A DNA stretch of 64,000 nucleotides from Stagnimonas sp. GTDB taxonomy: Bacteria; Pseudomonadota; Gammaproteobacteria; Nevskiales; Nevskiaceae. The stretch covers positions 3,402-67,401 of the forward strand of contig JBKJJE010000186.1 in assembly GCA_046598075.1 (NCBI GenBank), written 5' to 3'. The position numbers were made by a program, and so were the translations under genes. Under the pieces are notes generated by a model. It was not told where the DNA came from. It did no database searches and saw only the letters and a program-made list of their open reading frames with translations. Below, one piece after another: positions 1 to 15,658 of the stretch. How positions within the stretch are numbered: the stretch's first letter is position 1; each line of letters starts with the position of its first letter.

Positions 1-1999
1 CGATCACCGCATCCATCGCCACCCGCATGTTGTCGACCGCGTTGAGCGAGTCGAAGACGCGGAAGATGTCGACGCCTTCCTGCGCCGCCTGCTGGACGAA
101 ATAGCGCACCACGTTGTCGGCATAGTTGGTGTAGCCCACCGCATTGGCCGAGCGCAGCAGCATCTGGAAAGGGATGTTGGGTACCGCCGCACGCAGGGCG
201 CGCAGACGCTGCCAGGGGTCTTCCTTCAGAAACCGCAGGGCGACGTCGAAGGTGGCTCCGCCCCAGCATTCCAGTGACAGCAGGCCCGGCAGCAGGCGCG
301 CGTAATGCGGTGCGATGGGCAGCATGTCGGCAGTGCGCATGCGCGTCGCAAACAGCGACTGGTGCGCGTCGCGCATCGTGGTGTCGGTGAGCAGCACCTG
401 CGGCTGCGCCTTGATCCAGTCCGCAAAACCTTTCGCACCAGTTTTTCTGAGCAGGTCGCGTAGACCGCTCGGCACCGGGGCGGCGAGATCGGTGCAGGGC
501 CGCAGCGGCAAGGGCAGGGCGGCGGCGGGCCTGGCTCTGCCCTTCATGTCCGGATTGCCGTTGACCACCACCTCGCCGATGAAGCTCAACAGCTTGCTGG
601 CACGGTCGAGCCTTGCGGTGAAGCGGAACAGCTCCGGCGTGGTGTCGATGAAGCGGGTGGTTGCCTCGCCGCTGGCGAACAGCGGATGGGCGATGACGTT
701 TTCGAGGAATTGCAAATTGGTCGACACCCCGCGGATGCGGAACTCGCGCAGGGCGCGGTCCATGCGGCGGATGGCGACATCGGCCGTCGGCGCCCAGGCG
801 GTGACCTTCACCAGCAGCGAGTCGTAGTGCGGCGTCACCACCGCGTTGGCGTACACCGTGCCGCCGTCGAGGCGGATGCCGAAACCTGCCGGGCTGCGGT
901 AGGCAGTGACGCGGCCATGATCCGGCGTGAAACCATTCTCCGGGTCCTCGGTGGTCACCCGGCATTGCAGGGCGTGGCCGGAGAGCCTCAGCTCCTGCTG
1001 CTGCGGCAGGCCCGGATCGCCGATGCGCGCACCCTCGCTGACCCGGATCTGTGCGGCGACGAGGTCAACGCCGGTCACCATCTCGGTGACCGTGTGCTCG
1101 ACCTGAATGCGCGGATTGACCTCGATGAAGTAGAAGTTACCGGTATCGGCATCCATCAGGAACTCGACGGTGCCCGCGTGCGAGTAGCCCACGCTATTGC
1201 AGAGCCGCAGGGCCGCCGCACACAGCGACTCGCGCTGGGCCTGATCGAGATACGGCGCCGGTGCGCGTTCCACCACTTTCTGGTTGCGGCGCTGCACCGT
1301 GCAGTCGCGCTCGAACAGATGCACCAGATTGCCGTGACTGTCGCCCAGCACCTGTACCTCGACATGGCGCGCCCGCCGTACCAGCTTTTCGACGTACACC
1401 GCATCGTTGCCGAAGGCGGCAAGGGCTTCGCGACGGGCGGATTCCATCTGCGGCGCCAGCTCGGCCTCGGTCTCGATCACCCGCATGCCGCGGCCGCCGC
1501 CTCCCCAGCTGGCTTTCATCATCACCGGGTAGCCGACCCCGGCCACCAGGGGCTTGCAGGCCTCCAGTTCGCGCGGCAGTTCGCCGGTGGCGGGCAGCGT
1601 CGGCACCTTTGCCGCATCGGCCGCGGCGCGGGCGGCCACCTTGTCGCCGAGCGTACGCAACACTTTTGGGCTGGGCCCCACGAAGCGGATTCCGGCAGCG
1701 GCGCAGGCGTCGGCAAAATCGGGGTTTTCCGACAGGAAGCCGTAGCCGGGGTGGATCGCGTCCACCCCGGCGGCCCTCGCCACCCGGATGATGTCGGGGA
1801 TGTCGAGGTAGGCCGCGATGGGCTTCTTGCCCGCGCCGACCAGATAGCTCTCGTCGGCCTTGAAGCGGTGCAGCGCAAAGCGGTCTTCGTGCGCATAGAT
1901 CGCGACGGTGCGAATGCCCATCTCGGCGCAGGCGCGCATCACGCGGATGCTGATCTCGCCGCGGTTGGCGACCAGGAGTTTGTGGATGGCTAGGGTCAC
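1..1999 (-). CDS. pyc: Pyruvate carboxylase, N-terminal part (runs off the window start)
   Basis: My minus-strand translation from GTG at 1999 gives MTLAIHKLLVANRGEISIRVMRAC...HPGYGFLSENPDFA...GGGGRGMRV...FIEVNPRIQVEHTVTE (biotin carboxylase). It continues into a carboxyltransferase domain (LTDTTMRDAHQSLFATRMRT, SLECWGGATFDVALRFLKEDPW). The ORF track shows only antisense shadows here. Confidence 0.95.
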   Translation of the reverse strand, partial: MTLAIHKLLVANRGEISIRVMRACAEMGIRTVAIYAHEDRFALHRFKADESYLVGAGKKPIAAYLDIPDIIRVARAAGVDAIHPGYGFLSENPDFADACAAAGIRFVGPSPKVLRTLGDKVAARAAADAAKVPTLPATGELPRELEACKPLVAGVGYPVMMKASWGGGGRGMRVIETEAELAPQMESARREALAAFGNDAVYVEKLVRRARHVEVQVLGDSHGNLVHLFERDCTVQRRNQKVVERAPAPYLDQAQRESLCAAALRLCNSVGYSHAGTVEFLMDADTGNFYFIEVNPRIQVEHTVTEMVTGVDLVAAQIRVSEGARIGDPGLPQQQELRLSGHALQCRVTTEDPENGFTPDHGRVTAYRSPAGFGIRLDGGTVYANAVVTPHYDSLLVKVTAWAPTADVAIRRMDRALREFRIRGVSTNLQFLENVIAHPLFASGEATTRFIDTTPELFRFTARLDRASKLLSFIGEVVVNGNPDMKGRARPAAALPLPLRPCTDLAAPVPSGLRDLLRKTGAKGFADWIKAQPQVLLTDTTMRDAHQSLFATRMRTADMLPIAPHYARLLPGLLSLECWGGATFDVALRFLKEDPWQRLRALRAAVPNIPFQMLLRSANAVGYTNYADNVVRYFVQQAAQEGVDIFRVFDSLNAVDNMRVAMDAVI

Positions 2000-2091
2000 G
2001 GCAGCGGACTCGACGTGGGGTATGGGCTGACTGGGCGCAGCATGTCGCGCGCCGCCGCGATGAATATCGCGGGTTTGCGCAGGCTCGGCAA

Positions 2092-2361
2092 TCAACCCGC
2101 AGCGGTCAGTCGTTCCAGCGCCGACAGATAGCGCAGCGCCACCTGCCGCGACTCGCCGCACATCTCGATGCCGGGTTTGAAGCTGGCACACACGGCCGGG
2201 CGCCGGGGATCGCCGAAGATCGCGCAGCTGAAATCCGCCCTCAGCTGCACGCAGCGCACCCCCGCCGGCTTGCCCAGAGGCATGCCGGGGATCGGCGAGG
2301 AAATCGACGGTGCGATGCAGCAGGCACCGCAGGCGGTGCGGCAGGCCATGGGCTTGGTCAT
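2092..2361 (-). CDS. YkgJ-family cysteine-cluster (Zn/Fe-chelating) protein
   Basis: [34 protein letters not shown]...[13 protein letters not shown] pattern. The start is probably ATG 2361 or 2349 rather than 2523. Confidence 0.85.
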
Positions 2362-2571
2362 GGTGCAGCCTGACAGCAAATGCCGGGTGAGGGGATGCCA
2401 CTGGCCCAGCCAGCGGCCGGCTCGGCCATCGCGCGCGGCGGTCCTGCGCAGCAGGCGACCGGCGGTGCGCTGCCGGTTTTCACGCCGCATCCGCCGCAGC
2501 CCGCGCTGCTGCAACTGATTCACGACGCTTAAGCAGTTGACTTCATGGTCGATTCGGGCAATAAATGACTA

Positions 2572-3228
2572 ATGAACCATTATTTAATTTCTGCCCAGAA
2601 CAGCACGCAGGCGCCGGTCGCGGCCGCGCCCGTCCGCCGCCAGCGCCGCAGTGCGGTGACTCGCCGGCGGCTGCTCGACGCGGCTGAAAAAGTGTTCGGC
2701 GACAGCGGCTTTCACGCTGCCGCGATCAGCCAGATCACCCACACGGCGGGCATGGCACAGGGCACGTTCTACGTGCACTTCACCAGCAAGGAAGAACTGT
2801 TCTCGCAGCTGGTCGCCGACATCAGCCGCAGCCTGCGCCACGAGATGACGCGCGCCGCCGCCAATGCGCCGGATCGCCTGGCTGCCGAACGCGCGGGGCT
2901 GGTGGCGTTCTTCGACTACACCCAGCGGCATCCTGGGCTGTACCGCATCGTGCAGGAAGCGCAGTTCGTCGATCCCCCCAGCTACCGCCGCTACTACCAG
3001 CGTCTCGCCGATGGCTATGCACGGGCGCTGGCACGCGCTGCCGATGCCGGCGAAATCGCGCCCGGCAATGCTGCGGCGAGGGCCTGGGCGCTGATGGGCA
3101 TCGGGCATTTTCTGGGCCTGTACCACTGCCAGTGGCAGGGCACCGTGCCAGATGCCGCCGCGCTCGATGCCGCCATGGACCTGATCGCGCACGGCCTGAA
3201 AGGCGCACCGGCAAAGGCCGGCAGATGA
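2572..3228 (+). CDS. TetR/AcrR-family transcriptional regulator
   Basis: N-terminal HTH: TRRRLLDAAEKVFGDSGFHAAAISQITHTAGMAQGTFYVHFTSKEELF. The stop overlaps the next start (ATGA at 3225-3228). Confidence 0.92.
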   Translation: MNHYLISAQNSTQAPVAAAPVRRQRRSAVTRRRLLDAAEKVFGDSGFHAAAISQITHTAGMAQGTFYVHFTSKEELFSQLVADISRSLRHEMTRAAANAPDRLAAERAGLVAFFDYTQRHPGLYRIVQEAQFVDPPSYRRYYQRLADGYARALARAADAGEIAPGNAAARAWALMGIGHFLGLYHCQWQGTVPDAAALDAAMDLIAHGLKGAPAKAGR

Positions 3229-4217
3229 TCGTCAGCGGACTCGGCATCTACCTGCCCGGCGCGCGCCACGATGCTGCCCACATCGCAGCGGCCAGCGGCG
3301 TGCCACTGGCGGTGGTGCAGGACAAGCTTGGCATCCGCAGCAAGTCGGTGCCGGGGCCGGATGACCACAGCAATGTCATGGGCATCCATGCCGCGCGGGC
3401 GGCTCTGGCCGATGCCGGCGTGCAAGCCAGCGCCGTCGATGTGCTGATCGGCATCACCGAGGAGCACAAGGAGTTCCCGGTGTGGACGGCGGCGATCAAG
3501 ACTGCGCACGAGCTGGGGGCGGTGAATGCCTGGGCCTATGACTTGGGCCAGAAATGCGGCACCGCGATCCTGGCCCTGAAGCAGGCCAAGGACCTGATGC
3601 TGGCCGACCCGGCAGTGAACACCGTGCTGATCGCGGGCGGCTACCGCAATGGCGATCTGGTGGATTACCGGGACCCGGCGACCCGCTTTCTCAACAACCT
3701 TGCCGCTGGCGGCGGCGCGGCGGTGGTCACCCGCGGCGGCAGCGGTTTCCAGATTCTCGGCAGCGCGCTGTGCACCGACGGCAGCTTTTCGGAGGACGTG
3801 ATCGTGCCGGTCGGCGGCACCCGCGCGCCGCTGACGGCGGCGAATCTCGACCAGTTCCGCTTCCAGATCCCCGACCAGCCAGGGATGCGCGCGCGGCTGG
3901 AAGCCAAGAGCCTGGACAACTTCGTGGCGGTGATCGAAGCCGCCTGTGCGCGGTCGGGCTTCGCGCCCGGTGAGGCCGCCTATGTTGGCCTGCTGCACAT
4001 GAAGCGCAGCGCGCATCACCAGGTGCTCGAGCGCATCGGTGTGGCCGCATCACGCTCGATCTATCTGGAGGACTACGGCCATGTCGGGCAGATCGATCCG
4101 CTGCTGTCGCTCAAGCTGGCGCGTGATGCCGGACGGATCAAACCCGGCGACGGGGTGATTCTCTGCGCCGCCGGGATCGGCTATGTGTGGAACGCGCTGT
4201 GTCTGCGCTGCACATGA
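3225..4217 (+). CDS. 3-oxoacyl-ACP synthase III-like (thiolase-fold) condensing enzyme, Cys-His-His type
   Basis: MIVSGLGIYLPG start, catalytic Cys in GQKCGT, His in LLHMKRSAH, and YGHVGQIDP where FabH has YGN. ATGA overlaps at both ends. Confidence 0.85.
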   Translation: MIVSGLGIYLPGARHDAAHIAAASGVPLAVVQDKLGIRSKSVPGPDDHSNVMGIHAARAALADAGVQASAVDVLIGITEEHKEFPVWTAAIKTAHELGAVNAWAYDLGQKCGTAILALKQAKDLMLADPAVNTVLIAGGYRNGDLVDYRDPATRFLNNLAAGGGAAVVTRGGSGFQILGSALCTDGSFSEDVIVPVGGTRAPLTAANLDQFRFQIPDQPGMRARLEAKSLDNFVAVIEAACARSGFAPGEAAYVGLLHMKRSAHHQVLERIGVAASRSIYLEDYGHVGQIDPLLSLKLARDAGRIKPGDGVILCAAGIGYVWNALCLRCT

Positions 4218-5695
4218 GGCCGAGCCTCGACCTTGCGGCGCGCGGCGCCCGGCGCTGGCCGCTGCGCCCGGCACTGTGGGCCGCCGGCCGCTGGCTGAGC
4301 TATGGCGAACTCGATGAACGCGCCACCCGGCTCGCCGCGCGTTTGTACGCACTGGGGGTGCGGCATGGCGACCGCATCGGCATCCTCGGCCCCAACCAGC
4401 TCGCGCATTTCGACCTGCTGCTGGCCGCGCCCAGGCTCGGTTTCATCTACACGCCGTTCAATCACCGGCTGTCGGTGGCAGAAACCCGCGCGCTGTTCGA
4501 CTACGTGCGCCCCCGGCTGCTGCTGGTCGATGCCGCCCATGCCGCGCTCGCGCAGGGCTTCACCGGCGAACAGCTGCCACTGCAAGACCATGAAAGCTGG
4601 CTGGCAGCCGCAGACCCCGGCGCCGCACCCCGTGCGGCGACCACGCTCGATGACGCCCATATGCTGCTGTTCACCGGCGGCAGCACCGGCACCCCGAAAG
4701 GCGCACTCATCCCGTACCGGCAGACGCTCGCCAACGCGCGCGCCACCGTGCGGGGCTGGCGGCTGACCGCCAAGGACTGCGCGATTCAGGCCACACCCTG
4801 TTTCCACGCGGCGCTCAATGTGTTTTCCACGCCGCTGCTGGCGATCGGCGGGCGGCTGGTGCTGATGCCGGCGTTCGAGCCAGGTGAGTACCTGCGCCTG
4901 ATGCAGGCCACCGCAGCCACCCGCCTGTTCATGGTGCCGACCATGTTCCGCATGCTGGCCGAGCACCCCGACTTCGCAAGCGCCGATTTCAGCCGCGTGC
5001 GCAGCGCGATCTCCGGCGGCGCGCCTTGCCCGCCGGCCCTGCGGGCGCTGTTCGCCGCTCGCGGCATCGCCTTCCGCCAGGGGTTTGGCATGACCGAAGC
5101 GGGAGTGAACTGCTTCACCATCTCCGACGCCGAAGCCGCTGCCCATCCGCTCGCCGTCGGGCGTGCGCTGCCGGGCTTGCAGGCGGTGGTGCGGCAGCCC
5201 GACGGCAGCCCCTGCGCGGTGGACGAAGTGGGCGAACTCACCCTCAAGGGGCCACAGCTTTGCAGCGGCTATTTCGAGCGCGAGGCCGAATGGGCGCAAT
5301 GCTGCCGCGACGGCTGGCTGTGGACGGGCGACCTGGCGCGGGTGGATGCGAGCGGTCTCACCTTCATCACCGGCCGCCGCAAGGAGATGTTCATCAGCGG
5401 CGGCGAGAACGTCTATCCGGCGGAGATCGAGGCGACGCTCGCCGCACATCCCGCGGTCATCGAATGCGCCGTGCTGGGTGTGCCGCACGCCACCTGGGGT
5501 GAGGTGGGGCTGGCGGCGATTGCACTGCGCGAAGGCGCTGTGCTTGATGCGCCGGCGCTCGATTCCTGGCTCAAGCCGCAGCTCGCCGGCTACAAGCGCC
5601 CGCGCGAGTTCCTGTTCATGCACAGCCTGCCGAAGACGGCCGCCGGCAAGTTCAACAAACCCGAAATACGCCGCCTGCACGCAGTGCGGCAATAA
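4214..5695 (+). CDS. Acyl-CoA synthetase / AMP-binding ligase (FadD/MenE-like)
   Basis: AMP-binding motifs LFTGGSTGTPKG, GFGMTEAG, TGDLA, FISGGENVYPAEIE, and the C-terminal PKTAAGK. Confidence 0.92.
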   Translation: MRPSLDLAARGARRWPLRPALWAAGRWLSYGELDERATRLAARLYALGVRHGDRIGILGPNQLAHFDLLLAAPRLGFIYTPFNHRLSVAETRALFDYVRPRLLLVDAAHAALAQGFTGEQLPLQDHESWLAAADPGAAPRAATTLDDAHMLLFTGGSTGTPKGALIPYRQTLANARATVRGWRLTAKDCAIQATPCFHAALNVFSTPLLAIGGRLVLMPAFEPGEYLRLMQATAATRLFMVPTMFRMLAEHPDFASADFSRVRSAISGGAPCPPALRALFAARGIAFRQGFGMTEAGVNCFTISDAEAAAHPLAVGRALPGLQAVVRQPDGSPCAVDEVGELTLKGPQLCSGYFEREAEWAQCCRDGWLWTGDLARVDASGLTFITGRRKEMFISGGENVYPAEIEATLAAHPAVIECAVLGVPHATWGEVGLAAIALREGAVLDAPALDSWLKPQLAGYKRPREFLFMHSLPKTAAGKFNKPEIRRLHAVRQ

Positions 5696-5726
5696 CAGCA
5701 GCAAATTGACTAGCGGAGGAGACCGC

Positions 5727-6947
5727 ATGAGACGAACCAGTATTTCCCTGAGCCTGCTGGCGCTGCTCGCAAGCCCGGGGTGGGCGGGTGATGTGCTGCC
5801 GCAGCTGGGCCGCTACCTGCCGCTGTATCCCGCCTTCTACACCCAGATCACGGCCAGCAATGACGCCCGCGACAAGGTGTTCGATGCCAGCGGCAACGAG
5901 CAGTCGACGGCACAGCCGAGCCTGAGCGGCGATACCCGTTTTCCGGAGCAGCGCGCGGAGGCAAGCCTGATCTGGACCTTTCCGCTGTTCGAGGCCGCTC
6001 AAGTACCGTTTTTCGCCAGCCGCCTGCACACCGCGCGCATTCACCTGGGTTATGCACAGACCAAAACCAGGGGTGCTCTTGCCGATTTTGCCCTCGACAG
6101 CAGCGACGACAGCCGCACCCAGGCCGACTCCCTGAGCACCAAGAGCAGCGGCGTCACCGACCTGACGCTGGAGTTCGGCAGCTGGCTGCTGGGCAGCGGC
6201 AACTGGCGCGAGCGCAGCGAAACCCCGTACGCACTGCTGCTGCTCAATGGCGTCACGCTGCCCACCGGCGTCTACAACCGCGATGCGCCCGCCAACCCCG
6301 GCAGCAACACGCTCGCCGCCTACTCGCAGCTGGGCTTCTACGCACGGCCCTGGCCGGGTTCGCATCTGGACGCAGGCGCAGGCTACCGCATCTATCTGAA
6401 GAATCAGGACGCCGCGTTTGGCCTGCTCGCACCCACCAATCAGGGCAACGATTTCTACTGGGATGTGAGTCTCGCGCAGCGCGTCGCATCGGGCATCTAC
6501 GTCGGTGCTTTCGCCGATGGCCGGATAGGTGAGAAGAACGCCTACGAGAACCCACGCTTCGCTCCCAACGCAACGCCGCCACCCACCACTACGCCGCCGT
6601 CGGACAACTATCCACGGCCCGGCGTCTACTACGACGGCGGCACCAAGTTGACCCGTGTCGGAGCCTCGGCTTATGGCTTCATCGGCCAACGCTGGCTGCT
6701 GGGCCTGCACTACGCGATGCCCATCAGTGGCGAGAGCGGCGAGTTCGACCTGCCTTACAACAACCGCCAGCCCGCAGGCTGCACGGTGGCTGCGACGGGC
6801 TGCTCGGTGACTGACGGCGGCACGGTGCAGAACGTCGATGGCCAGGGGCCGGCGCGGGTATTTGCCTCCTCGCAGCTCACGCTCTCGCTGCAATTCAATT
6901 TCGGCCAGGGGGACAGCTACACCTGCGTTGGCTGTAAACAGCCATGA
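5727..6947 (+). CDS. Secreted/outer-membrane protein, probable MetA-pathway/SphA-type beta-barrel transporter (copy A)
   Basis: RBS GGAGGAG before ATG 5727, signal peptide MRRTSISLSLLALLASPGWA, motif LPTGVYNRDAPANPGSN typical of this family, and alternating aromatic beta-strand patterns. Confidence 0.6.
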   Translation: MRRTSISLSLLALLASPGWAGDVLPQLGRYLPLYPAFYTQITASNDARDKVFDASGNEQSTAQPSLSGDTRFPEQRAEASLIWTFPLFEAAQVPFFASRLHTARIHLGYAQTKTRGALADFALDSSDDSRTQADSLSTKSSGVTDLTLEFGSWLLGSGNWRERSETPYALLLLNGVTLPTGVYNRDAPANPGSNTLAAYSQLGFYARPWPGSHLDAGAGYRIYLKNQDAAFGLLAPTNQGNDFYWDVSLAQRVASGIYVGAFADGRIGEKNAYENPRFAPNATPPPTTTPPSDNYPRPGVYYDGGTKLTRVGASAYGFIGQRWLLGLHYAMPISGESGEFDLPYNNRQPAGCTVAATGCSVTDGGTVQNVDGQGPARVFASSQLTLSLQFNFGQGDSYTCVGCKQP

Positions 6948-8209
6948 TGATCCTCAAGCTGCAAGCCGCCATGAGAACACTGCTCGCGACGCTGCTGCTC
7001 GCCATCGCGTGCAGCGCAAACGCGGGCATCGTCTTCACGCCGCATGTGAGCGAATACGGCATCCTGCCCGCCGGCATGTATGCCGAGTACACCCTGATCG
7101 GCACCGAGATCGAGGCGATCTACGACCGCGATGGCAAAAAGGTGAAACTCGGCCGGCCGTTCGTGCCCGCAGGCGATTCCACCGATGCGGCGATTGGACT
7201 GTTCAAGGCCTTGTGGATCGGCAACGTCTTTCGTGACAGCGACATCCCCTACCTCAACAACCATTCGCAGTTCTGCCGTGCCATCGGCACGGTCGGCTAC
7301 CAGCAGAACACCGGTGCGATCGCCAACCGCGTGCGGCTGTTCAACCAGCGGCCCGGCAGCAATGGCTTCGGCGACCTGTTCGGCCTCTGCGGCATCTATG
7401 GCAGCGAGCACCGCCTGGGGCCGATCAAGGTCAATGGCCTGTTCGCCACCACGGTCAAGTTTCCCATCGGCCGCTACGACACCCGCGCCGCACTCAACAC
7501 CGGCACCAACTACTGGAGCGTGATCCCGCAACTGGCATTCCATGCCGAGGTATTTGGCCGCGTCTACATCGACGGCACCTTCGCCTGGCAGTTCAACGGC
7601 GACAACGACAAGCCCTCGTTTGGCGGACTCACCCCCACCCGCATCGCCGACGTCCGCAATGCCGAGGTCAACCTCGCCTGGAAGTTCACCGAGCACTGGT
7701 TCGCCGATATCGGCTATTCGCATCGGCAGTCGGTCGGGCCCAATAAATACGACAAGGTGACGATCAACTTCGAGGATCAGCCGCTGTCGCCTCAGAGTGC
7801 CTGCGACAACACCAACAACGGCATCAGCAATACCGGCAACCTGCTGGGCGTGGCGCTGGGCCCGACGGTGTCGCAGCAGCTCTGCGACAACGCGCTGACC
7901 GACCAGTTCTATCTCAATCCGCGCGCCGGCCCCTACCAGGACAGGGGCGTCAGCGGCACCTTGCTGACCACTGGCATCAGCTACGTCTACCGCGCCTCGA
8001 CGGTAGTGCAGGCGCGCGTCGCCCAGCCCATCGCCGGTCGCGGCAGCCAGATCGATGTGGTGTTCGATGTCTGCGCCACCCAGCCTTGCAGCCAGGCCAA
8101 TGCAACCTCGCAGGTCACTTCGCGGCTGTTCGGCGTGCAGGAGGCGGCGGCGGTTTCCGCCTCGCCGTATTTCGAGCTGCGGCTGGTTCACCTGTTCTGG
8201 GCGCCATGA
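6944..8209 (+). CDS. Secreted/outer-membrane protein, probable MetA-pathway/SphA-type beta-barrel transporter (copy B)
   Basis: Signal peptide MRTLLATLLLAIACSANA (ATG 6971 is an alternative start), motif FPIGRYDTRAALNTGTNYWS, and aromatic C-terminus LVHLFWAP. Confidence 0.65.
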   Translation: MMILKLQAAMRTLLATLLLAIACSANAGIVFTPHVSEYGILPAGMYAEYTLIGTEIEAIYDRDGKKVKLGRPFVPAGDSTDAAIGLFKALWIGNVFRDSDIPYLNNHSQFCRAIGTVGYQQNTGAIANRVRLFNQRPGSNGFGDLFGLCGIYGSEHRLGPIKVNGLFATTVKFPIGRYDTRAALNTGTNYWSVIPQLAFHAEVFGRVYIDGTFAWQFNGDNDKPSFGGLTPTRIADVRNAEVNLAWKFTEHWFADIGYSHRQSVGPNKYDKVTINFEDQPLSPQSACDNTNNGISNTGNLLGVALGPTVSQQLCDNALTDQFYLNPRAGPYQDRGVSGTLLTTGISYVYRASTVVQARVAQPIAGRGSQIDVVFDVCATQPCSQANATSQVTSRLFGVQEAAAVSASPYFELRLVHLFWAP

Positions 8210-8210
8210 C

Positions 8211-9644
8211 ATGAGCAACGCACTCCGCCTCTGCACCGCACTCGGCATGGTCCTGCTGGCCGCCTGCGCGCCGCGCGAAATCCTGCTGCCTGCCATCGGT
8301 CTCAAGCCCTATGCCCTGCAAGACTTCCCGCCCGGGTTCACGGCGCCGATCTCCAGCGAAACCGGCCAGCCCATGCCCGGCTTCGGCGGCACCGGCGCGC
8401 TAACCCACACGCCGGTGATCTTCATCCACGGCAACACCGTCTCGGCCCGCTACTGGCTGCCGGCGCGTCGCTATTTCAAGCAGAAAGGCTTTGCCGATGC
8501 GGGACTCTGGTCGCTCGGCTACGGCTGGGACAACGTCCGCTACTTCGACTCCGCCGATCTCTCGGTCGCCAGCGTCGAACGCATGGTGACCAGTGTGATG
8601 AAGTTCGTCGCCAAGCAAACCGGCAAGCCGGTCGACCAGGTGGACATCATCAGCCACTCGCTGGGGGTGACGCTGGCGCGGCAGTGGATGAAGCAGACCA
8701 ACAGCTGGCACAAGGTGCGCAACTTCATCGGCGTCTGCGGCGCCAACGACGGGGTGTGGACGGCCGACCTCTATTCGCGCGGCCAGAATCGCGGTGTTGC
8801 TTTCGAACTGGCCCCCGGCAGCCCCTGGCTGAAGCAGTTGAGTGAGGGCGGCGAGACTCCCGGCCCCACCCGCTACATGACGCTCTACGACGGCACCGGC
8901 CGCGGTGACGTGCTTTTCCCGAAGCCGTACGAGAACTCCTCGGCGCTGGAGGGTGCGACCAACCTCGCCTTCAACGTCACGCACGGCACTTATATGGATC
9001 ACCTCGAACTGCCGCGCACGCCGGAGACCATGGACGCCATGATCGACTGGCTGCGCCAAGCGCCGGAGCCCTCGCGCAGCGCCAGCCCGCCGGCGCTGCT
9101 GCGCAAGGGCGATCTGGTGCAGGCCGACCAGCCGGCAGCGCAGGTGCATTGCGCGACAGGCGGGCGTTACCCGGATGCGCGCACGGCGGGCGTGGCGGCC
9201 TGGCCACTCGCCGCCGATGTACTCACCACCTGTTATGCGCGCCATCCGCAGAGTGGCCTCGCCAGCCCGATGGCGCGTTACCGGCGCGGCAGCGGGCCGC
9301 TGGCAGCGGGACGTCTGACGGTCGGCGCCGACAAGATGGCGAAGTCCTATCAGAACCCGATCGCGGTGACGCTGACCGCCAGCGAGCCAGAGGCTTTCAT
9401 CGTCTACACCACCAGCGGCACGAAGCCCAACAGCGGCTCGCCGCTCTACACCGCGCCGGTGGTGGTCACAGGTCCGCTGCGACTCACCGCCATCGCCATC
9501 GCACCCGATGGCCGCCAGAGCGCGCCGCTGATTCTCGACTACGACTTAAGCCTCGAACTGATCGAGGCGGAGCACACCCTGCAGCGCCAGTTCGACACCA
9601 GCGAACCAGCAGATTACCAAGGCAAACGGACGAAAGGCAGATGA
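8211..9644 (+). CDS. Lipoprotein alpha/beta-hydrolase (lipase class 2 / PhaZ7-like esterase) with a C-terminal chitobiase/Fn3-associated-like domain
   Basis: Lipobox VLLAAC, oxyanion motif TPVIFIHGN, nucleophile elbow VDIISHSLG, and C-terminal VTLTASEPEAFIVYTTSGTKPNSGSPLYTAPVVV...LTAIAI. Confidence 0.8.
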   Translation: MSNALRLCTALGMVLLAACAPREILLPAIGLKPYALQDFPPGFTAPISSETGQPMPGFGGTGALTHTPVIFIHGNTVSARYWLPARRYFKQKGFADAGLWSLGYGWDNVRYFDSADLSVASVERMVTSVMKFVAKQTGKPVDQVDIISHSLGVTLARQWMKQTNSWHKVRNFIGVCGANDGVWTADLYSRGQNRGVAFELAPGSPWLKQLSEGGETPGPTRYMTLYDGTGRGDVLFPKPYENSSALEGATNLAFNVTHGTYMDHLELPRTPETMDAMIDWLRQAPEPSRSASPPALLRKGDLVQADQPAAQVHCATGGRYPDARTAGVAAWPLAADVLTTCYARHPQSGLASPMARYRRGSGPLAAGRLTVGADKMAKSYQNPIAVTLTASEPEAFIVYTTSGTKPNSGSPLYTAPVVVTGPLRLTAIAIAPDGRQSAPLILDYDLSLELIEAEHTLQRQFDTSEPADYQGKRTKGR

Positions 9645-10375
9645 CGCAGAAGAGAGCAGTGGTGACCGGTGGGCTGGGCGCGATTGGCAGTGCGATTGCG
9701 GATGCGCTGGTGGCGTCAGGGCATCAGGTGGTCGCGCTTGACCACCCCAGCGCGGAGCCACGCGCAAGCGAATGGCTCGCAGCGCGCCCCGGCTGCGCGG
9801 CTTTCGTCGCCGACCTTGCCGATACCGAGGCCAGTAGCAAGGTGATGCAGGCCATCGAAACGCAGATTGGCCCCGTCGATGTGCTGGTGAACGCGGCTGG
9901 CATCACTCGCGACGCGCGCTTCGTGAAGATGACCGCCGAGCAATGGCGGCAGGTGCTCGGCAGCAATCTCGACAGTGTCTTCAACGCCACCCAACCGCTG
10001 TTTGCGGGCATGTGCGCGCGCGGCTTCGGGCGCATCGTCAACATCGCTTCGGTCAACGGCCAGAAAGGCCAGTTCGGGCAGGCCAACTACTCGGCGGCGA
10101 AAGCCGGCATGCACGGCTTCACCATGGCGCTGGCGCAGGAGGGCGCAGCACAGGGGGTGACCGTCAACACCGTTTCGCCCGGCTACATCGCCACGCCGAT
10201 GACGGCAGCGATCAAGCCAGAGGCGCTCGCCAAGGTCAATGCGCAGATTCCGCTTGGCCGCATGGGCAGGCCGGACGAGATCGCAAGGGTGGTGGCCTTT
10301 CTTGCCGCCGAACAATCTGCCTATCTCACCGGGACCAACATCCCGGTGAATGGCGGCCTCTATATGGGCCACTGA
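9641..10375 (+). CDS. phbB: Acetoacetyl-CoA reductase (PhaB/PhbB-like SDR)
   Basis: VVTGGLGAIG, NAAGITRDARFVKM, and SVNGQKGQFGQANYSAAKAG (YxxxK) are characteristic of PhaB. Confidence 0.85.
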   Translation: MTQKRAVVTGGLGAIGSAIADALVASGHQVVALDHPSAEPRASEWLAARPGCAAFVADLADTEASSKVMQAIETQIGPVDVLVNAAGITRDARFVKMTAEQWRQVLGSNLDSVFNATQPLFAGMCARGFGRIVNIASVNGQKGQFGQANYSAAKAGMHGFTMALAQEGAAQGVTVNTVSPGYIATPMTAAIKPEALAKVNAQIPLGRMGRPDEIARVVAFLAAEQSAYLTGTNIPVNGGLYMGH

Positions 10376-10376
10376 G

Positions 10377-11588
10377 ATGTCCTCCCGCAACCCCGCCTAT
10401 CTGCTCGCCGTCGCCGCTGCCGCGCTCGGCTATTTCGTCGATCTCTACGACATCGTCATTTTCGGCGTCGTGCGCGTGGCCTCGCTCACCGACCTCGGAG
10501 TGACCGGCGAGGCCAACACCGCCTGGGGCATCCGGCTGTTCAACCTGCAGATGATCGGCATGTTGTTCGGCGGCTTTTTCTGGGGCTGGGTGGGGGATCG
10601 CCTGGGCCGTCGCCTGGCACTGATCGCCACCATCACCCTCTACTCGCTCGCCAACATCGCCAATGCCTTCGTCGGCACCGTCGAGCAGTACGCACTGATG
10701 CGCTTTCTGGCCGGGGTCGGGCTGGCCGGAGAGCTGGGCGCGGGAGTGACGCTGATCTCCGAACTGCTGCCGAAAAAGCTGCGCGGCTACGGCACCACTG
10801 CCATCTCGTTTCTGGGACTGCTGGGCGCGCTCACCGCTGCCCTCATTGGCGGCAAGCTCGACTGGCGCTGGGCCTACGGCCTGGGCGGCGGCATGGGCCT
10901 GATGGTGCTGGCGCTGCGCATCGTGGTGCTGAAGGAATCGACCTTGTTCGAGCAGCACCGGGGTGCCGCCGATCAGGGCGACTGGCGCCTGTTGTTCGGC
11001 CGCGCTCGCCCGGCGCTGCGCTTCGCACAGGTGGTCGCGGTGGGGGTGCCGCTGTGGTACGTGTCGGCGCTGTTCGTCAACTTCGCGCCCGAATACGGCA
11101 AGGCACTGGGCTTTGCAGCACCGCTGCGGGTCGCCGATGTGCTGCTCTGGCAGGCATCGGGACTCGCCATCGGCTCGGCATTCTCCGGTCTCCTCAGCGA
11201 GTGGCTGCAAAGCCGCAAGAAGGTGATCGGCAGCAGCCTGGTGGTGCTCGCCCTGCTGGTGCTGCTGCTGTTGCGCGCACCCGACCGCCAGACCTACATC
11301 GGCCTGATGCTGGCGATCGGCCTGGCGCAGGGCTACTGGACCGCCTTCATCACCATGAGCGCCGAGCAGTTCGGCACCAACCTGCGCGCCACCGTCGCCA
11401 CTTCAGTGCCCAACGTGGTGCGGGCGATGACCGTGCCGGTGACGCTGACGCTGCAAGCCCTGATGCCGGTCACCGGGCTGCTGCCGGCCACGCTCGGCAT
11501 CGGCATCCTCATCTTCGGCCTGGGCCTCGTCGCGCTCTGGCAGCTGCGCGAAACCTGGGGTCGCGATCTCGACTATCGGGAACGCTGA
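10377..11588 (+). CDS. MFS transporter (sugar/organic-acid type)
   Basis: About 12 hydrophobic segments, motif A GWVGDRLGRR, and AGVGLAGELGAG. Confidence 0.9.
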   Translation: MSSRNPAYLLAVAAAALGYFVDLYDIVIFGVVRVASLTDLGVTGEANTAWGIRLFNLQMIGMLFGGFFWGWVGDRLGRRLALIATITLYSLANIANAFVGTVEQYALMRFLAGVGLAGELGAGVTLISELLPKKLRGYGTTAISFLGLLGALTAALIGGKLDWRWAYGLGGGMGLMVLALRIVVLKESTLFEQHRGAADQGDWRLLFGRARPALRFAQVVAVGVPLWYVSALFVNFAPEYGKALGFAAPLRVADVLLWQASGLAIGSAFSGLLSEWLQSRKKVIGSSLVVLALLVLLLLRAPDRQTYIGLMLAIGLAQGYWTAFITMSAEQFGTNLRATVATSVPNVVRAMTVPVTLTLQALMPVTGLLPATLGIGILIFGLGLVALWQLRETWGRDLDYRER

Positions 11589-11661
11589 GCCGCGTGTGGT
11601 ACCGAACCGCGCCGAGCCGCGGGATAATGGCAGCCCCTCGCTTCCCACCCGGCCCGCCGCC

Positions 11662-12582
11662 ATGACTGACCAGAGCCCCGCCCCCGAATCCGTACTCAGC
11701 GCCGAGCAGGTGCTGGCCGATCTCATCACCGTGCTCGATCTCGAGACGCTGGAGTTGAATCTGTTCCGCGGGGTGTCGCGCGATCTCGGCGGCCGCAGCG
11801 TGTTCGGCGGCCAGGTGATCGGCCAGGCGCTGGTGGCGGCGAGCCGCACGGTGGAGGGCCGCACGCCGCATTCGCTGCACGCCTATTTCCTGCTGCCGGG
11901 CGATATGGCCGCACCCATCGTCTATGAGGTGGACCGCATCCGCGACGGCGGCAGTTTCAGCGCGCGACGGGTGCAGGCGATCCAGCACGGGCGGCCGATC
12001 CTGTCGATGATTGCCTCCTTCCACGTGCCGGAGGGCGGGCTGGAACATCAGGTCACCATGCCCGAGGTGCCGCCGCCGGAATCGCTCAAGCCCACGACCG
12101 AACTGATTGCGGCGTGGCTGGAAAAGGCCGGCACCGTGCACCCCCGTATCCGGGCCTCGCTGATCCGCCATCCGGCGGTGGAGTTTCGACCTGTTTATCC
12201 CTGGAACCCGGTCGCCCCCGAGGTGACGCAGCCGCGTCAGGCCATCTGGTTCCGCATCGGCCAGTCGCTGCCGGACGACCCGATGCTGCACCGCTGCCTG
12301 CTCGCCTATGCCAGCGACTTCAACCTCATCGGCACGGCGCTGCGCCCGCACGGCAAGAGCTGGTATTCGCCCGACATGCAGGTGGCAAGCCTGGATCACG
12401 CGCTGTGGTTTCACCGCGACGCACGCGTCGACGACTGGCTGCTGTACTGCATGGACTCGCCCAGCGCACAGGGCTCGCGCGGCATGGCGCGCGGGATGAT
12501 CTACGACCGCGGCGGGCGCCTGATCGCCAGCGTCGCGCAAGAAGGCCTGATGCGCAATGCGGTGCCGAAGTCGAAGGCCTAG
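11662..12582 (+). CDS. tesB: Acyl-CoA thioesterase II
   Basis: VFGGQVIGQAL, HSLHAYFL, IRDGGSFSARRVQAIQHG, LAYASDFNL, ASLDHALWFH. Confidence 0.95.
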   Translation: MTDQSPAPESVLSAEQVLADLITVLDLETLELNLFRGVSRDLGGRSVFGGQVIGQALVAASRTVEGRTPHSLHAYFLLPGDMAAPIVYEVDRIRDGGSFSARRVQAIQHGRPILSMIASFHVPEGGLEHQVTMPEVPPPESLKPTTELIAAWLEKAGTVHPRIRASLIRHPAVEFRPVYPWNPVAPEVTQPRQAIWFRIGQSLPDDPMLHRCLLAYASDFNLIGTALRPHGKSWYSPDMQVASLDHALWFHRDARVDDWLLYCMDSPSAQGSRGMARGMIYDRGGRLIASVAQEGLMRNAVPKSKA

Positions 12583-12594
12583 AGCCTAGGCCTT
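12574..12594. terminator. 9-bp perfect hairpin formed by the convergent stops of tesB and uvrA
   Basis: AAGGCCTAG-AGC-CTAGGCCTT. There is no U-tract, so a terminator function is uncertain. Confidence 0.3.
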
Positions 12595-15525
12595 GAGCAT
12601 CGCTTTCAGGAACTGCCCGGTGTAGGAACCTTTCGCCTTTGCCACCTGTTCCGGGGTGCCGGCAGCAACGATCCTGCCGCCGCCGCTGCCGCCTTCCGGC
12701 CCCATGTCAATGATCCAGTCAGCGCGCTTGATGACGTCGAGATTGTGCTCGATCACCACCACGGTGTTGCCGTGGTCGCGCAGTCGCTCGATCACCTTCA
12801 GCAGCTGGGCGACGTCGTGGAAGTGCAAGCCGGTGGTGGGTTCGTCGAGGATGTAGAGCGTCTGCCCGGTGTCGCGGCGTGACAGCTCCTTGGCCAGCTT
12901 GATGCGCTGCGCCTCGCCGCCGGACAGCGTCGTCGCGTTCTGGCCGAGCGTGATGTAGGAGAGGCCGACGTCGAGCAGGGTCTTGAGCTTGTTGGCGAGC
13001 GCGGGCACCGGCTTGAAGAACTCGTGGGCCACTTCCACGGTCATCCCCAGCACTTCGTTGATGCTCTTGCCCTTGTATTTGATCTCCAGCGTCTCGCGGT
13101 TGTAGCGCCGGCCCTTGCAGGTGTCGCAGGTGACGTAGACATCGGGAAGAAAGTGCATCTCCACCTTGATCAGGCCGTCGCCCTCGCAGGTCTCGCAGCG
13201 CCCACCCTTGACGTTGAAGCTGAAGCGCCCTGCCTCGTAGCCGCGGGCACGCGACTCCGGCACCTCGCAGAACAGCTCGCGGATCGGGGTGAACAGGCCG
13301 GTGTAGGTGGCCGGATTGCTGCGCGGAGTCCGACCGATTGGCGACTGGTCGATGTCCACCAGTTTGTCCAGATGTTCCATGCCCCTGATGGCCTTGGCTG
13401 CCGACCAGCGCGAGGCGGCACCATTGAGATGGCGCGCGGCGTAGTTCATCAGGGTGTCGTTGATCAGCGTCGACTTGCCGCTGCCGCTGACGCCGGTGAC
13501 GCAGGTGAACAGCCCGCAGGGGATTTCCACCGTGACGTCGCGCAGGTTGTTGCCGGTGGCGTTCTCGACCACGATCATCCTCTTGGGATCGACCGGGTGG
13601 CGGGTGGTGGGGATGGCGATTTTCTCGACGCCGCTCAGGTAGCGCCCGGTCAGCGAATCGGGATTGGCCTGCACCTGCTGCGGCGTGCCTTCGGCAACGA
13701 TGCGGCCGCCGTGCACGCCGGCGCCGGGGCCGATGTCCACCACGTAGTCCGCGCTCATGATCGCGTCCTCGTCGTGCTCGACCACGATCACGGTGTTGCC
13801 GAGATCGCGCAGATGCACCAGGGTTTTCAACAGCCGCTCGTTGTCGCGCTGGTGCAGGCCGATGGAGGGCTCGTCGAGCACGTACATCACGCCGACCAGG
13901 CCGGCACCGATCTGACTGGCCAGGCGAATGCGCTGCGACTCGCCGCCGCTCAGGGTTTCGGCGCTGCGCGCCAGGGTCAGGTAATCGAGACCGACGTTGT
14001 TGAGAAAACCCAGCCGCGCGACGATCTCCTTCAGTATCTTCTCGGCGATCTCGCCCTTGTGGCCGGGCAGCCGCATCTGCGTGAACCAGGCTTCGGCATC
14101 GCGGATCGACAGCGCGGTGAGCTCGTGCAGCGGCTTATCGGCGACGAACACATTGCGCGCGGTGCGGTTGAGGCGGGCGCCGCCGCAGTCCGGGCAGGCC
14201 TTGTTGCTCAGGTAGCGTGCCAGCTCTTCTTTCACCGCCAGCGATTCGGTCTCTTTGTAGCGACGCTGCAGGTTGGGGATGATGCCCTCGAAGCGGTGCA
14301 GGCGGGTCACCGTCTTGCCGTGTACGTCGGGATAGCTGAATTGCAGTTTTTCTTCGCCGCTGCCGTGCAGTACCAGCGCCTGCACCTTGGCAGTCAGCTT
14401 GTTGAAAGGCTTGTCGGTATCGAAACCATAGTGCCTGGCGAGGCTCTTGATCAGCGCCCAGTAATAGGCGTTCTTCCGGTCCCAGCCCTTGACTGCGCCA
14501 TCGGACAGCGACAGGTCGGCGGCGACCACCACCCGGTCCGGGTCGAACACCTGCAGCGTGCCCAGGCCATCGCAGGTCTGGCAGGCGCCGTGCGGTGCGT
14601 TGAAGCTGAAGATGCGCGGTTCGAGTTCCGGCACCGAGTAGCCGCAGTGCGGGCAGGCCATGCGGTTGCTGAAGGTGATCTCTGCTCTTTGAACCCCATC
14701 GCCTTCGCCATCCGTGGCGCGACCGCCGCTCTGTTGATCTAGCTCTGCCCGGCCATCCTTGGCCGGGCGTTCGGGGCCACCGCGAGCAGTGCTCGCAAGC
14801 CGTGGCCCCTCACCATGCGGTGCGACCAGCACCAGACCGTCGCTTAAGCGCAGCGCCGTCTCGAACGACTCGGTAATGCGCTGCTTCACATCCACGCGCA
14901 CCTTGAAGCGATCCACCACCACTTCGATGTCGTGCTTGAGCTTGCGGTTGAGTGCGGGCACCGCGTCGATCTCGTGCACATGGCCGTTGACCCGCACCCG
15001 CACAAAGCCCTGCGCGCGCAGCTGTTCGAACCATTCCGCATGCTCACCCTTGCGGCCGCGTACCACCGGGGCCAGGATCATCCAGGCCGATTCGGCAGGC
15101 AACGCCAGCACGTGATCAACCATCTGCGAGACGCTTTGCGCTTCCAGCGTCACTGCGTGATCAGGGCAGCGCGGCGTGCCAACGCGGGCGAACAGCAGGC
15201 GCAGGTAGTCCTGGATTTCGGTCACCGTGCCCACCGTCGAGCGCGGATTGTGGCTGGTCGATTTCTGCTCGATGGAGATCGCTGGCGACAGGCCCTCGAT
15301 GGAGTCCACATCGGGCTTGTCCATCATGCTCAGGAACTGCCGCGCGTAGGCGCTTAAGCTTTCCACGTAGCGCCGCTGGCCTTCCGCGTACAGGGTGTCG
15401 AACGCCAGCGAGGACTTGCCCGAGCCGGACAGCCCGGTGATGACGATCAGCTTGTCGCGCGGCAGCGTCAGCGAGACATTCTTGAGATTGTGGGTGCGCG
15501 CACCGCGGATGCGTATTGCGTCCAT
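12586..15525 (-). CDS. uvrA: Excinuclease ABC subunit A
   Basis: [41 protein letters not shown], second Walker [11 protein letters not shown], two LSGGE signatures and zinc-finger Cys motifs. Alternative start at 15531. Confidence 0.98.
14683..14820. repeat. Palindromic REP/MITE-like segment inserted in frame within uvrA
   Basis: Hairpins CCCGGCCA-TCCT-TGGCCGGG (14748-14767), GGGGCCAC...GCGAGCA-G-TGCTCGC...GTGGCCCC (14773-14809) and CGCCA-TCCG-TGGCG (14706-14719). It encodes a 46-aa loop where UvrA normally has about 8 aa. Confidence 0.65.
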
Positions 15526-15658
15526 GGACATGGGCGTCAGTACCTGGGCAAAGCCTGAAAAAGGGATCGGCTACTATACGTTGCCTTCGTCGCCTGATTG
15601 CGCCCCGCGCTCCAGCTTCTCCCAATTCATGCGCGCCGATCCCGACGAACCGACCCCG

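Follow-up and report, generated by a model that had tools for sequence, protein, structure and literature searches.

What does an enzyme with the fold of beta-ketoacyl-acyl carrier protein synthase III (KAS III) do in a gene cluster otherwise equipped to hydrolyze an ester and to take up and activate the released acid? This question is raised by eight plus-strand genes, spanning 2572-11588 according to the open reading frame (ORF) listing and a check of start codons, in a 64,000-nucleotide stretch of contig JBKJJE010000186.1 from Stagnimonas sp. (assembly GCA_046598075.1; Nevskiaceae), hereafter the window. They encode a TetR-family regulator, the KAS III-like protein (KAS), a ligase (LIG), two outer-membrane proteins (OM1 and OM2), a lipoprotein hydrolase (HYD), a short-chain dehydrogenase/reductase (SDR), and a transporter of the major facilitator superfamily (MFS). 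We give an even chance to the reading that these genes form a TetR-gated, mobile operon scavenging an esterified short carboxylic acid, most likely (R)-3-hydroxybutyrate (3HB) from external polyhydroxybutyrate (PHB) or its oligomers, with KAS in the place of PhaA. The surface lipoprotein hydrolase would cleave the external ester, the two outer-membrane barrels of family PF13557 would carry the product across the outer membrane, the MFS symporter would import it, and the ligase would form the coenzyme A (CoA) thioester, which would probably also free TetR from an operator overlapping the promoter. The PhaB-type SDR and KAS would then act at the node of 3-hydroxybutyryl-CoA, acetoacetyl-CoA, and acetyl-CoA, KAS occupying the position that the beta-ketothiolase PhaA holds in ordinary PHB loci.

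The genes are tightly coupled. The TetR gene (2572-3228, 218 aa) overlaps the KAS gene (3225-4217, 330 aa) by ATGA, and the same overlap joins KAS to the ligase gene (4214-5695, 493 aa). OM1 (5727-6947, 406 aa) follows after 31 bp and shares an ATGA with OM2 (6944-8209, 421 aa). HYD (8211-9644, 477 aa) begins after a gap of 1 bp and overlaps the SDR gene (9641-10375, 244 aa), again by ATGA, and the MFS gene (10377-11588, 403 aa) follows after 1 bp. Four ATGA junctions and gaps of 31, 1, and 1 bp were therefore counted, and the coordinates agree with the coupling reported in the first-pass annotation. Pfam assigned the proteins from TetR to MFS to TetR_N (E 2.5e-14, 53 bits), ACP_syn_III plus ACP_syn_III_C, AMP-binding, PF13557 (twice), Lipase_2 plus CHB_HEX_C_1, and MFS_1. 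Each of the protein families named in the first pass was recovered with Pfam and NCBIfam, and the assignments of KAS, the SDR, and both barrels became sharper.

An alignment of 18 KAS orthologues was used to scan one genome per species, which returned 80 loci, and the window's nine proteins were mapped onto all fetched loci by tblastn. The loci were retrieved via two KAS peptide motifs, so that conservation of these motifs among them is partly by construction. The TetR-KAS-LIG core was present in every fetched locus with a long enough contig. The block TetR-KAS-LIG-OM1-OM2-HYD, with its gene order preserved, is shared by 24 of the 83 fetched loci, which belong to several families and are mostly Nevskiales; the carriers were Nevskiaceae, Fontimonas, Sinimarinibacterium, Oceanococcus, an Ectothiorhodospiraceae metagenome-assembled genome (MAG), and MAGs labeled Binatia or Verrucomicrobiia. 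Pfam-labeled gene calls on independent contigs agreed with this map. Nearly all of these 24 loci also have an SDR gene, either downstream or, in divergent orientation, upstream, and an MFS gene was present in about half, being replaced or absent elsewhere. Because the six-gene order recurs in this way, we judge the linkage not to be due to chance. The combination on whose conservation the first-pass annotation had staked its proposal is indeed conserved across genomes.

KAS is rare and patchy in its distribution. Of 401 sampled Pseudomonadota genomes, this one alone has a KAS scoring above cut-off; the corresponding counts are 28 of 151 for the genomes of its order and 5 of 8 for the other genomes in its genus. 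One orthologue of the same order (G435:C4:60902-61675, 289 bits) is shortened and contains two in-frame stops, TAG and TAA; it is probably a decaying copy. On the contig labeled Verrucomicrobiia (L003/L016), the operon and its flanks match contigs L134-L136. The phylum labels of this contig and of the Binatia contig (L018) may be binning errors rather than signs of wide transfer.

A second architecture was found in the Deinococcota, where about 50 loci of Trueperaceae and Deinococcales carry the TetR-KAS-LIG core with the same palindromic operator. The core is followed there by one or two cytoplasmic Abhydrolase_1 genes with serine nucleophile motifs, and about 40 of the loci, where the contig reaches far enough, hold a LivK-type ATP-binding cassette (ABC) importer made up of a Peripla_BP_6 binding protein, two permeases, and two ATPases. 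Only remote solved relatives of this binding protein were available as a guide to its ligand. In three Deinococcales MAGs (L067:10936-13074, L073:6292-8529, and L074), the ligase ORF is enlarged to 712-745 aa. The extra C-terminal part of the L067 ligase is an alpha/beta hydrolase domain, and a fusion was counted for all three; such a ligase-hydrolase fusion is a Rosetta-stone link from ester hydrolysis to CoA activation. In Stagnimonas aquatica, a patatin-like phospholipase gene (L089:7761-9278, DUF3336 plus Patatin) lies directly 5' of TetR-KAS-LIG; MprF-like and VirJ-like genes were seen further upstream. The Salinisphaera version has a divergent SDR gene and a non-orthologous ligase, and a sodium/solute symporter (SSS) takes the place of the MFS protein in L019, L020, L080, and L038. 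The OM1-OM2-HYD module is absent from the Deinococcota, Stagnimonas, and Salinisphaera versions.

Three unrelated types of ester hydrolase (lipoprotein Lipase_2, cytoplasmic Abhydrolase_1, and patatin) and three types of importer (MFS, SSS symporter, and ABC with binding protein) were thus found with the same core. As judged from their families, what varies is in every case an ester hydrolase and an importer, and what stays constant is a CoA ligase and KAS. Because three hydrolase and three importer types were recruited to one core, the order of ester hydrolysis, import, and CoA activation appears well supported, and the gene content is strong evidence against export. The window's own transporter is consistent with this order. 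In NCBIfam it matches families of H+ symporters best (E 2e-29 to 1e-19) and efflux families only at E 1e-9 or worse, and we describe it as a predicted accessory, replaceable importer. Inward flow and a coupling of hydrolysis to CoA activation had both been proposed in the first pass; the former is borne out by this symporter-like MFS protein and by the SSS or ABC importers elsewhere, the latter by the three hydrolase types and the three fusions. By its occurrence in two bacterial phyla, the operon is regarded as horizontally mobile.

Upstream of the genes, a sigma-70-like promoter is predicted at 2537..2565 (plus strand), with the -35 element TTGACT at 2537-2542, a 17-nt spacer, and the -10-like AATAAA at 2560-2565. 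The -10 element is without the final T, and a strict consensus scan missed this promoter. A -35 element TTGAC(A/G/T) with a 17-nt spacer, followed by a -10 element and a palindrome, occupies the corresponding position 5' of the TetR gene in loci from the two phyla. The predicted TetR operator (2563..2590, plus strand) overlaps the -10 element and the TetR start codon. Its core, ATGACTAATGAACCATTA (2565-2582), is unique in the window (chance expectation 0) and represents a diverged version, in the window's lineage, of the palindrome AAAC(A/C)TGA-N8-TCA(T/G)GTTT at the homologous position. A further candidate TetR-binding sequence is AAACATGACTCACCTGTCATGTTT. With up to six mismatches, the 18-nt core of the palindrome was matched 5' of the TetR gene at 65 of the 79 loci, compared with about 7% of random 400-nt windows. 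Where the SDR gene is divergent, the operator sits between it and TetR. In five whole genomes the operator pattern occurred essentially once per genome, at the TetR promoter, and a control with the reversed pattern gave 0; on this ground a wider TetR regulon was set aside. Because the operator is shared by both phyla and single in each genome, TetR is deduced to be a local repressor that travelled between the phyla together with its operator and KAS-LIG.

TetR was present in nearly all loci. Its assignment as a TetR-family repressor follows from the helix-turn-helix domain and the conserved palindrome at its own promoter, DNA binding itself being predicted. The best NCBIfam matches are ScbR, FasR, and FadR-type regulators, all below cut-off. 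TetR presumably controls its own gene and would be released by a CoA thioester. The annotated start ATG (2572) lies inside the operator and is not preceded by a Shine-Dalgarno sequence. In the close relatives L004 and L006, an in-frame stop follows the equivalent ATG, and translation starts at a GTG preceded by AAGGAGA; this segment has apparently been lost from the window.

The enzymes of the proposed uptake route were then considered one by one. HYD contains a lipobox cysteine, Cys19, followed by A-P-R-E/Q in all orthologues, with P21 and R22 invariant. Its domains are a class-2 lipase or PhaZ7-like core, a cysteine-containing beta domain, and a CHB_HEX_C domain. The assignment to lipase class 2 (PF01674, 50.8 bits against 20.3) is joined by Ser-Asp-His candidates (S150, D227/D233, and H264). 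Among 18 sequences S150 (in HSLG), D227, D233, H264, C314, and C341 are invariant, the two cysteines being located in the middle domain. These features fit a predicted exported, disulfide-bonded lipoprotein directed to the outer membrane. The best solved sequence match was PhaZ7 (E 1e-9, residues 55-185 only). A Foldseek search with the HYD model (pLDDT 78.7) ranked an Archaeoglobus fulgidus lipase, PhaZ7, a Streptomyces lipase, and Bacillus LipA together, with template modeling (TM) scores of 0.33-0.40 for PhaZ7, 0.62 for the Streptomyces lipase, and 0.7-0.8 for LipA. On these comparisons, likeness to PhaZ7 is a lead and not membership. The HYD family comprises 214 proteins at E <= 1e-5; the 120 listed show 54% identity or more, and every HYD gene of the fetched loci whose neighborhood was read lies in this operon.

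OM1 and OM2 both match PF13557 (E 7e-14 and 52.9 bits; E 2.4e-11 and 44.6 bits; gathering score 22 bits). Both have Sec signal peptides, and signal-like sequences are found at the N termini of all orthologues. The two are distant paralogues (23% identity over 245 residues, E 4e-8), and OM2 always stands right after OM1 in the 24 loci, a pairing that suggests a hetero-oligomeric or two-step channel. PF13557 has been described as a family of outer-membrane channels for hydrophobic or aromatic acids (PMC12314914, PMC7481262). The ligase, with AMP-binding and AMP-binding_C domains, is classed as an acyl-CoA ligase. It remains below every NCBIfam cut-off; the best family matches are FadD-type, and the closest solved relatives are the fatty-acyl/feruloyl-CoA synthetases 8weu/8wev (319 bits), followed by malonyl-CoA synthetase.

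The SDR passes TIGR01829, the acetoacetyl-CoA reductase family (333 bits, cut-off 302.1), as the only SDR of this genome to do so. It scored 257-259 bits with the solved PhaB proteins of Ralstonia and Burkholderia and about 196 bits with FabG, and its HMMER alignment with PhaB is full-length and includes NGQKGQFGQ. It is a homologue of the PhaB-type NADP(H) acetoacetyl-CoA reductases, as the first pass had supposed, with the corresponding activity predicted. A link to PHB, also suspected earlier, appeared in the Oceanococcus MAG L038 (= G445:C3). There, an 874-aa type-1 extracellular PHB depolymerase (L038:1230-3854, minus strand; NF050058 160 bits, cut-off 150; TIGR01840 145 bits, cut-off 108) comes after the divergent SDR gene on its strand. 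On the other side, phaE begins 8 bp after HYD and overlaps a class III phaC; phaC scored 389 bits (cut-off 365), and phaE reached 99 bits with TIGR01834, below cut-off. This phaE-phaC pair (L038:11859-13693, plus strand) is inserted between HYD and the SSS symporter gene, which is preceded by a small ORF.

In the lineage of L003 and L134-L136, genes of the homogentisate pathway lie about 2.5 kb upstream of the operon (about 1000-6500 of each locus), namely, Biopterin_H (phenylalanine hydroxylase), HppD, HgmA, fumarylacetoacetase (FAA hydrolase), and a glutathione S-transferase. This pathway ends in acetoacetate. An Abhydrolase_1 gene and an SLT-LysM gene stand between these genes and the operon. 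The PhaB-type SDR, the PHB genes of Oceanococcus, and the homogentisate pathway are three pointers to the acetoacetyl-CoA/3-hydroxybutyrate node.

Searches of this genome, which is 96.8% complete, gave no match to PhaC_N and no 3-hydroxybutyrate dehydrogenase (BDH) or acetoacetyl-CoA synthetase (AACS) above cut-off. A 396-aa alpha/beta protein resembling class III PhaC (G000:C80:29919-30842, minus strand = L090:4908-6098; 167 bits against a cut-off of 365) may be a divergent polyhydroxyalkanoate (PHA) synthase; a 322-aa ORF without a family match adjoins its gene. A correlation between PHA synthase and the operon was rejected, as a PhaC-like homologue of about 165 bits occurs in 103 of the 151 genomes of the order, with the operon or without it. 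Profile searches of five Trueperaceae carriers yielded neither a PhaB-grade SDR nor PhaC_N. Four of these five possess near-threshold BDH-like genes (281-296 bits, cut-off 307), which would allow an oxidize-first route in these carriers; this complementary distribution of the two dehydrogenase types counts in favor of the 3HB reading. Because Deinococcota carriers are without a PhaB-grade reductase, the oxidation step is not intrinsic to the TetR-KAS-LIG core.

KAS itself passes NCBIfam NF005308 (PRK06840, "3-oxoacyl-ACP synthase") with 429.1 bits (cut-off 315) over residues 3-328. The KAS III fold is supported by an AlphaFold model (pLDDT 84.5) and by Foldseek TM scores of 0.82-0.83 to FabH, at 17-24% identity, to PqsD, BioZ, and ZhuH, and of 0.80 to OleA. 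No solved structure matched KAS better than E 2e-15 in a sequence search, only 97 representative clusters among 1.84 billion proteins matched it at E <= 1e-30, and literature searches retrieved no publication on this cluster or on the PRK06840 family. KAS belongs to a small family without a solved or characterized member. Cys111 and His258 align with the catalytic Cys and His of FabH, and the FabH Asn (YGNTSAAS) aligns with His286 (YGHVGQID), giving a catalytic set of Cys-His-His vs Cys-His-Asn. C111, H258, H286, E79, E80, and E83 are invariant in the 18 orthologues. Of 30 distant relatives (25-43% identity), all have G285 and D291 and at least 90% have H286, whereas the Glu is variable and a few proteins have Ser instead of Cys; on these alignments we regard YGHxGxxD as the hallmark of the family. 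At the position of the Phe in the FPS motif of FabH, a residue that caps a short-acyl pocket and limits Escherichia coli FabH to short primers, KAS has F84 and most orthologues have Tyr; this counts in favor of a C4 substrate.

Assignments of KAS to the characterized families did not hold. For FabH proper, the scores were 78.7 bits with TIGR00747 (cut-off 292) and 89.6 bits with NF006829 (cut-off 249), and His replaces Asn. For 3-hydroxy-3-methylglutaryl-CoA (HMG-CoA) synthase, NF003274 gave 47.9 bits (cut-off 244); the alignment is confined to residues 3-168, and ACP_syn_III_C makes up the C-terminal half. The N-terminal half matched an HMG-CoA synthase model at E 9e-13, and the Glu of the archaeal motif GSESHP (6esq_I) has its aligned counterpart in E79 (or E80), with the same Glu-to-Cys spacing. 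Glu79 was rejected as a family-wide catalytic base because it is not conserved in the 30 distant relatives; the Glu may matter in this subfamily only. KAS also does not fit the thiolases of the PhaA/FadA type. Pfam shows only ACP_syn_III and ACP_syn_III_C, with no Thiolase_N or Thiolase_C, and C111, C241, and C326 are the only invariant cysteines of the 18 orthologues, a second catalytic Cys not being conserved.

We further considered in which direction the operon would run. For this genome, net catabolism (3HB-CoA to acetoacetyl-CoA to acetyl-CoA) is somewhat favored over synthesis, in which KAS would make acetoacetyl-CoA and PhaB would reduce it, because of the uptake context and because most carriers have no adjacent PHA synthase. 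The proposal that KAS, with its Cys-His-His set and YGHxGxxD, is the acetoacetyl-CoA-cleaving "thiolase" of the mobile operon, acting after a ligase-first entry and a reversed PhaB by retro-Claisen cleavage of 3HB derived from external PHB, is tentative and in our judgment rather doubtful. Were it correct, it would represent a new reaction for the fold and a new pathway of PHB catabolism.

Several observations weigh against the 3HB-scavenging reading or against its catabolic direction. We know of no enzyme of the KAS III fold that acts as a degradative thiolase; all those characterized are condensing or acyl-transferring enzymes. PhaB enzymes usually work in the reductive direction, with NADPH. 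The phaEC genes 3' of HYD in Oceanococcus count toward synthesis, and, among the fetched loci, a PHB depolymerase or phaEC was found beside the operon in no locus but the single MAG L038. HYD falls short of the PhaZ7-type depolymerase family (NF050060, 59.8 bits against 450, residues 53-184 only), and its TM score to PhaZ7 lies below those to small lipases (0.6-0.8), indicating that the likeness resides in a core shared with lipases. PF13557 channels and a FadD-like ligase would equally suit fatty or aromatic acids. Finally, this genome encodes at least five canonical thiolases and a pair of succinyl-CoA:3-ketoacid CoA-transferase (SCOT) type. As the genome possesses these enzymes, there is no pathway hole for KAS to fill, and an argument of this kind fails. 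The first-pass annotation had noted that the usual BDH, CoA-transferase, and thiolase are absent from the cluster, and the operon indeed has no thiolase-family gene.

A different explanation is salvage of fatty acids from esters. The lipase would free a medium-chain acid, the ligase would convert it into acyl-CoA, KAS would condense this with malonyl-acyl carrier protein (ACP) or malonyl-CoA, the SDR or housekeeping FabG would reduce the product, and the acid would feed fatty acid synthesis instead of being oxidized as fuel. Activation by a ligase and priming by a KAS III enzyme is the usual pattern in PqsA/PqsD, BioZ, and Vibrio cholerae FabH2, and KAS has the FabH fold (TM 0.82). The ligase has FadD-type best matches, TetR resembles the fatty-acyl-CoA sensors FasR and FadR, Stagnimonas carries a patatin lipase beside the core, PF13557 channels have been associated with hydrophobic molecules, and Deinococcota carriers would need no dedicated reductase. 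The SDR, however, is PhaB-like, pointing to short-chain CoA substrates, and not FabG-like (258 vs 196 bits). No locus contains a gene for ACP, malonyl-transferase, or dehydratase, and the importers belong to small-solute types (SSS, MHS/AAHS-like MFS, and LivK-type ABC) rather than FadL. The FabH Asn is a His in KAS, and the PHB genes beside the operon in Oceanococcus are left unexplained. We consider fatty acid salvage unlikely.

Another ester-derived acid could be the substrate instead, be it aromatic or hydroxycinnamic, malonate, or a lactone-derived 3-oxo acid, with a KAS reaction new for its fold. The closest solved relatives of the ligase include feruloyl-CoA and malonyl-CoA synthetases, PF13557 channels occur in aromatic-acid clusters, and the best match of the MFS protein is an aromatic acid/H+ symporter family. 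In other bacteria, aromatic acids are taken up by LivK-type ABC systems, and the Deinococcota hydrolases score best, below cut-off, with 3-oxoadipate enol-lactonase models. All of these similarities lie below family cut-offs, though, no locus contains a hydratase, lyase, or ring-cleavage gene, and the PhaB-level SDR and the PHB neighbors point to C4 chemistry, so that an acid of this kind seems quite improbable.

The four protein families also match the Ole quartet at the superfamily level, with KAS as OleA for head-to-head condensation, the SDR as OleD, the ligase as OleC, and the hydrolase as OleB; in such a biosynthetic cluster a lipid, beta-lactone, or signal would be exported via the outer-membrane proteins. 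OleA is a structural neighbor of KAS (TM 0.80), the KAS Glu aligns with the HMG-CoA synthase base in this subfamily, and the ligase-hydrolase fusions recall the known OleBC fusions. Feature by feature, this explanation was set aside. OleB uses an Asp nucleophile and OleD belongs to the 3beta-hydroxysteroid dehydrogenase family, whereas all hydrolases associated with the core have Ser nucleophile motifs (HSLG, GHSLGG, and GLSNGG) and the SDR is a classical adh_short, PhaB-type protein. Moreover, the window's hydrolase is an exported lipoprotein, all transporters are importers, and the Glu is not retained across the KAS family at large; an Ole-like cluster is very improbable. Equally hard to credit is a mosaic in which the uptake and hydrolase module and the KAS-ligase-SDR genes are mere neighbors with unrelated functions, as might be read from the absence of OM1-OM2-HYD in the Deinococcota, Stagnimonas, and Salinisphaera versions, since the genes are translationally coupled behind a single operator and promoter, another hydrolase and importer always substitute for the missing module, and the small HYD family was met only in this operon wherever its neighborhood was read.

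Downstream of the MFS gene, tesB (acyl-CoA thioesterase II; 11662-12582, or from 11596 if GTG is the start; plus strand; TIGR00189 296 bits, cut-off 293) extends the run to nine co-directional genes. A sequence scan detected no terminator-like site between the MFS gene and tesB, and transcriptional read-through into tesB is possible. Among the fetched loci, however, tesB lies directly 3' of the operon only in this genome and in its closest relative, L006, and we regard it as a neighbor outside the conserved unit. The first-pass annotation, which was partly supported overall, had included tesB among the genes considered, and this part is not supported. On the minus strand, uvrA (12586-15531) is convergent with the operon. 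PADLOC gave no match to anti-phage defense.

PHB and related polyesters serve microbes as a large carbon store and are sold as a bioplastic; the known routes of PHB consumption employ 3-hydroxybutyrate dehydrogenase, CoA-transferase, and thiolase. The operon would be a compact, phylum-crossing alternative consisting of a surface hydrolase, outer-membrane channels, a CoA ligase, PhaB, and a ketosynthase-fold enzyme at the thiolase position. Assigning the KAS reaction would widen the known chemistry of the KAS III fold, and the conserved operator together with TetR could serve as a biosensor for the pathway's CoA intermediate.

Comparison with known systems places the operon between several of them. 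With classical PHB loci (phaC or phaEC with phaA and phaB) it shares a PhaB-type reductase above the TIGR01829 cut-off and a predicted chemistry centered on acetoacetyl-CoA, and in Oceanococcus it directly adjoins phaE-phaC and the gene for an extracellular PHB depolymerase. Unlike these loci, it has no thiolase-family gene and a KAS III-fold protein in that place, it includes dedicated outer-membrane channels and a lipid-anchored hydrolase, and most carriers have no bona fide PHA synthase beside it. In contrast to PHB utilization via depolymerase, BDH, SCOT/AACS, and thiolase, it contains an acyl-CoA ligase instead of BDH and CoA-transferase. PhaZ7, the extracellular native-PHB depolymerase of Paucimonas lemoignei, resembles HYD at E 1e-9, and the Foldseek alignments extend over about 170 residues at 21-27% identity. 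The two share the block VDIxxHSxGV...NxWxxVRxFI and conserved Ser-Asp-His candidates. HYD differs in being a lipoprotein with two extra C-terminal domains, only the N-terminal core being alignable.

KAS shares with FabH/KAS III, PqsD, BioZ, NphT7, and ZhuH the fold (TM 0.82-0.83), the nucleophilic Cys, the first His, and an acid-activating partner, but it has His for Asn, YGHxGxxD, no ACP or fatty acid synthesis context, and a setting in an uptake operon. With the non-decarboxylative HMG-CoA synthase and OleA, which use a Glu base, it has in common the aligned Glu and the preserved Glu-Cys spacing; it differs in lacking HMG_CoA_synt_C and a family-wide Glu, and its operon partners do not show the features of OleB and OleD. 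Operons for organic acids that combine a LivK-type ABC importer with an acyl-CoA ligase include the Cou and Pim clusters of Rhodopseudomonas palustris. The Deinococcota version likewise couples a Peripla_BP_6 ABC importer to a ligase under a local repressor, but instead of genes for beta-oxidation or a hydratase/lyase it contains a KAS III-fold enzyme and alpha/beta hydrolases.

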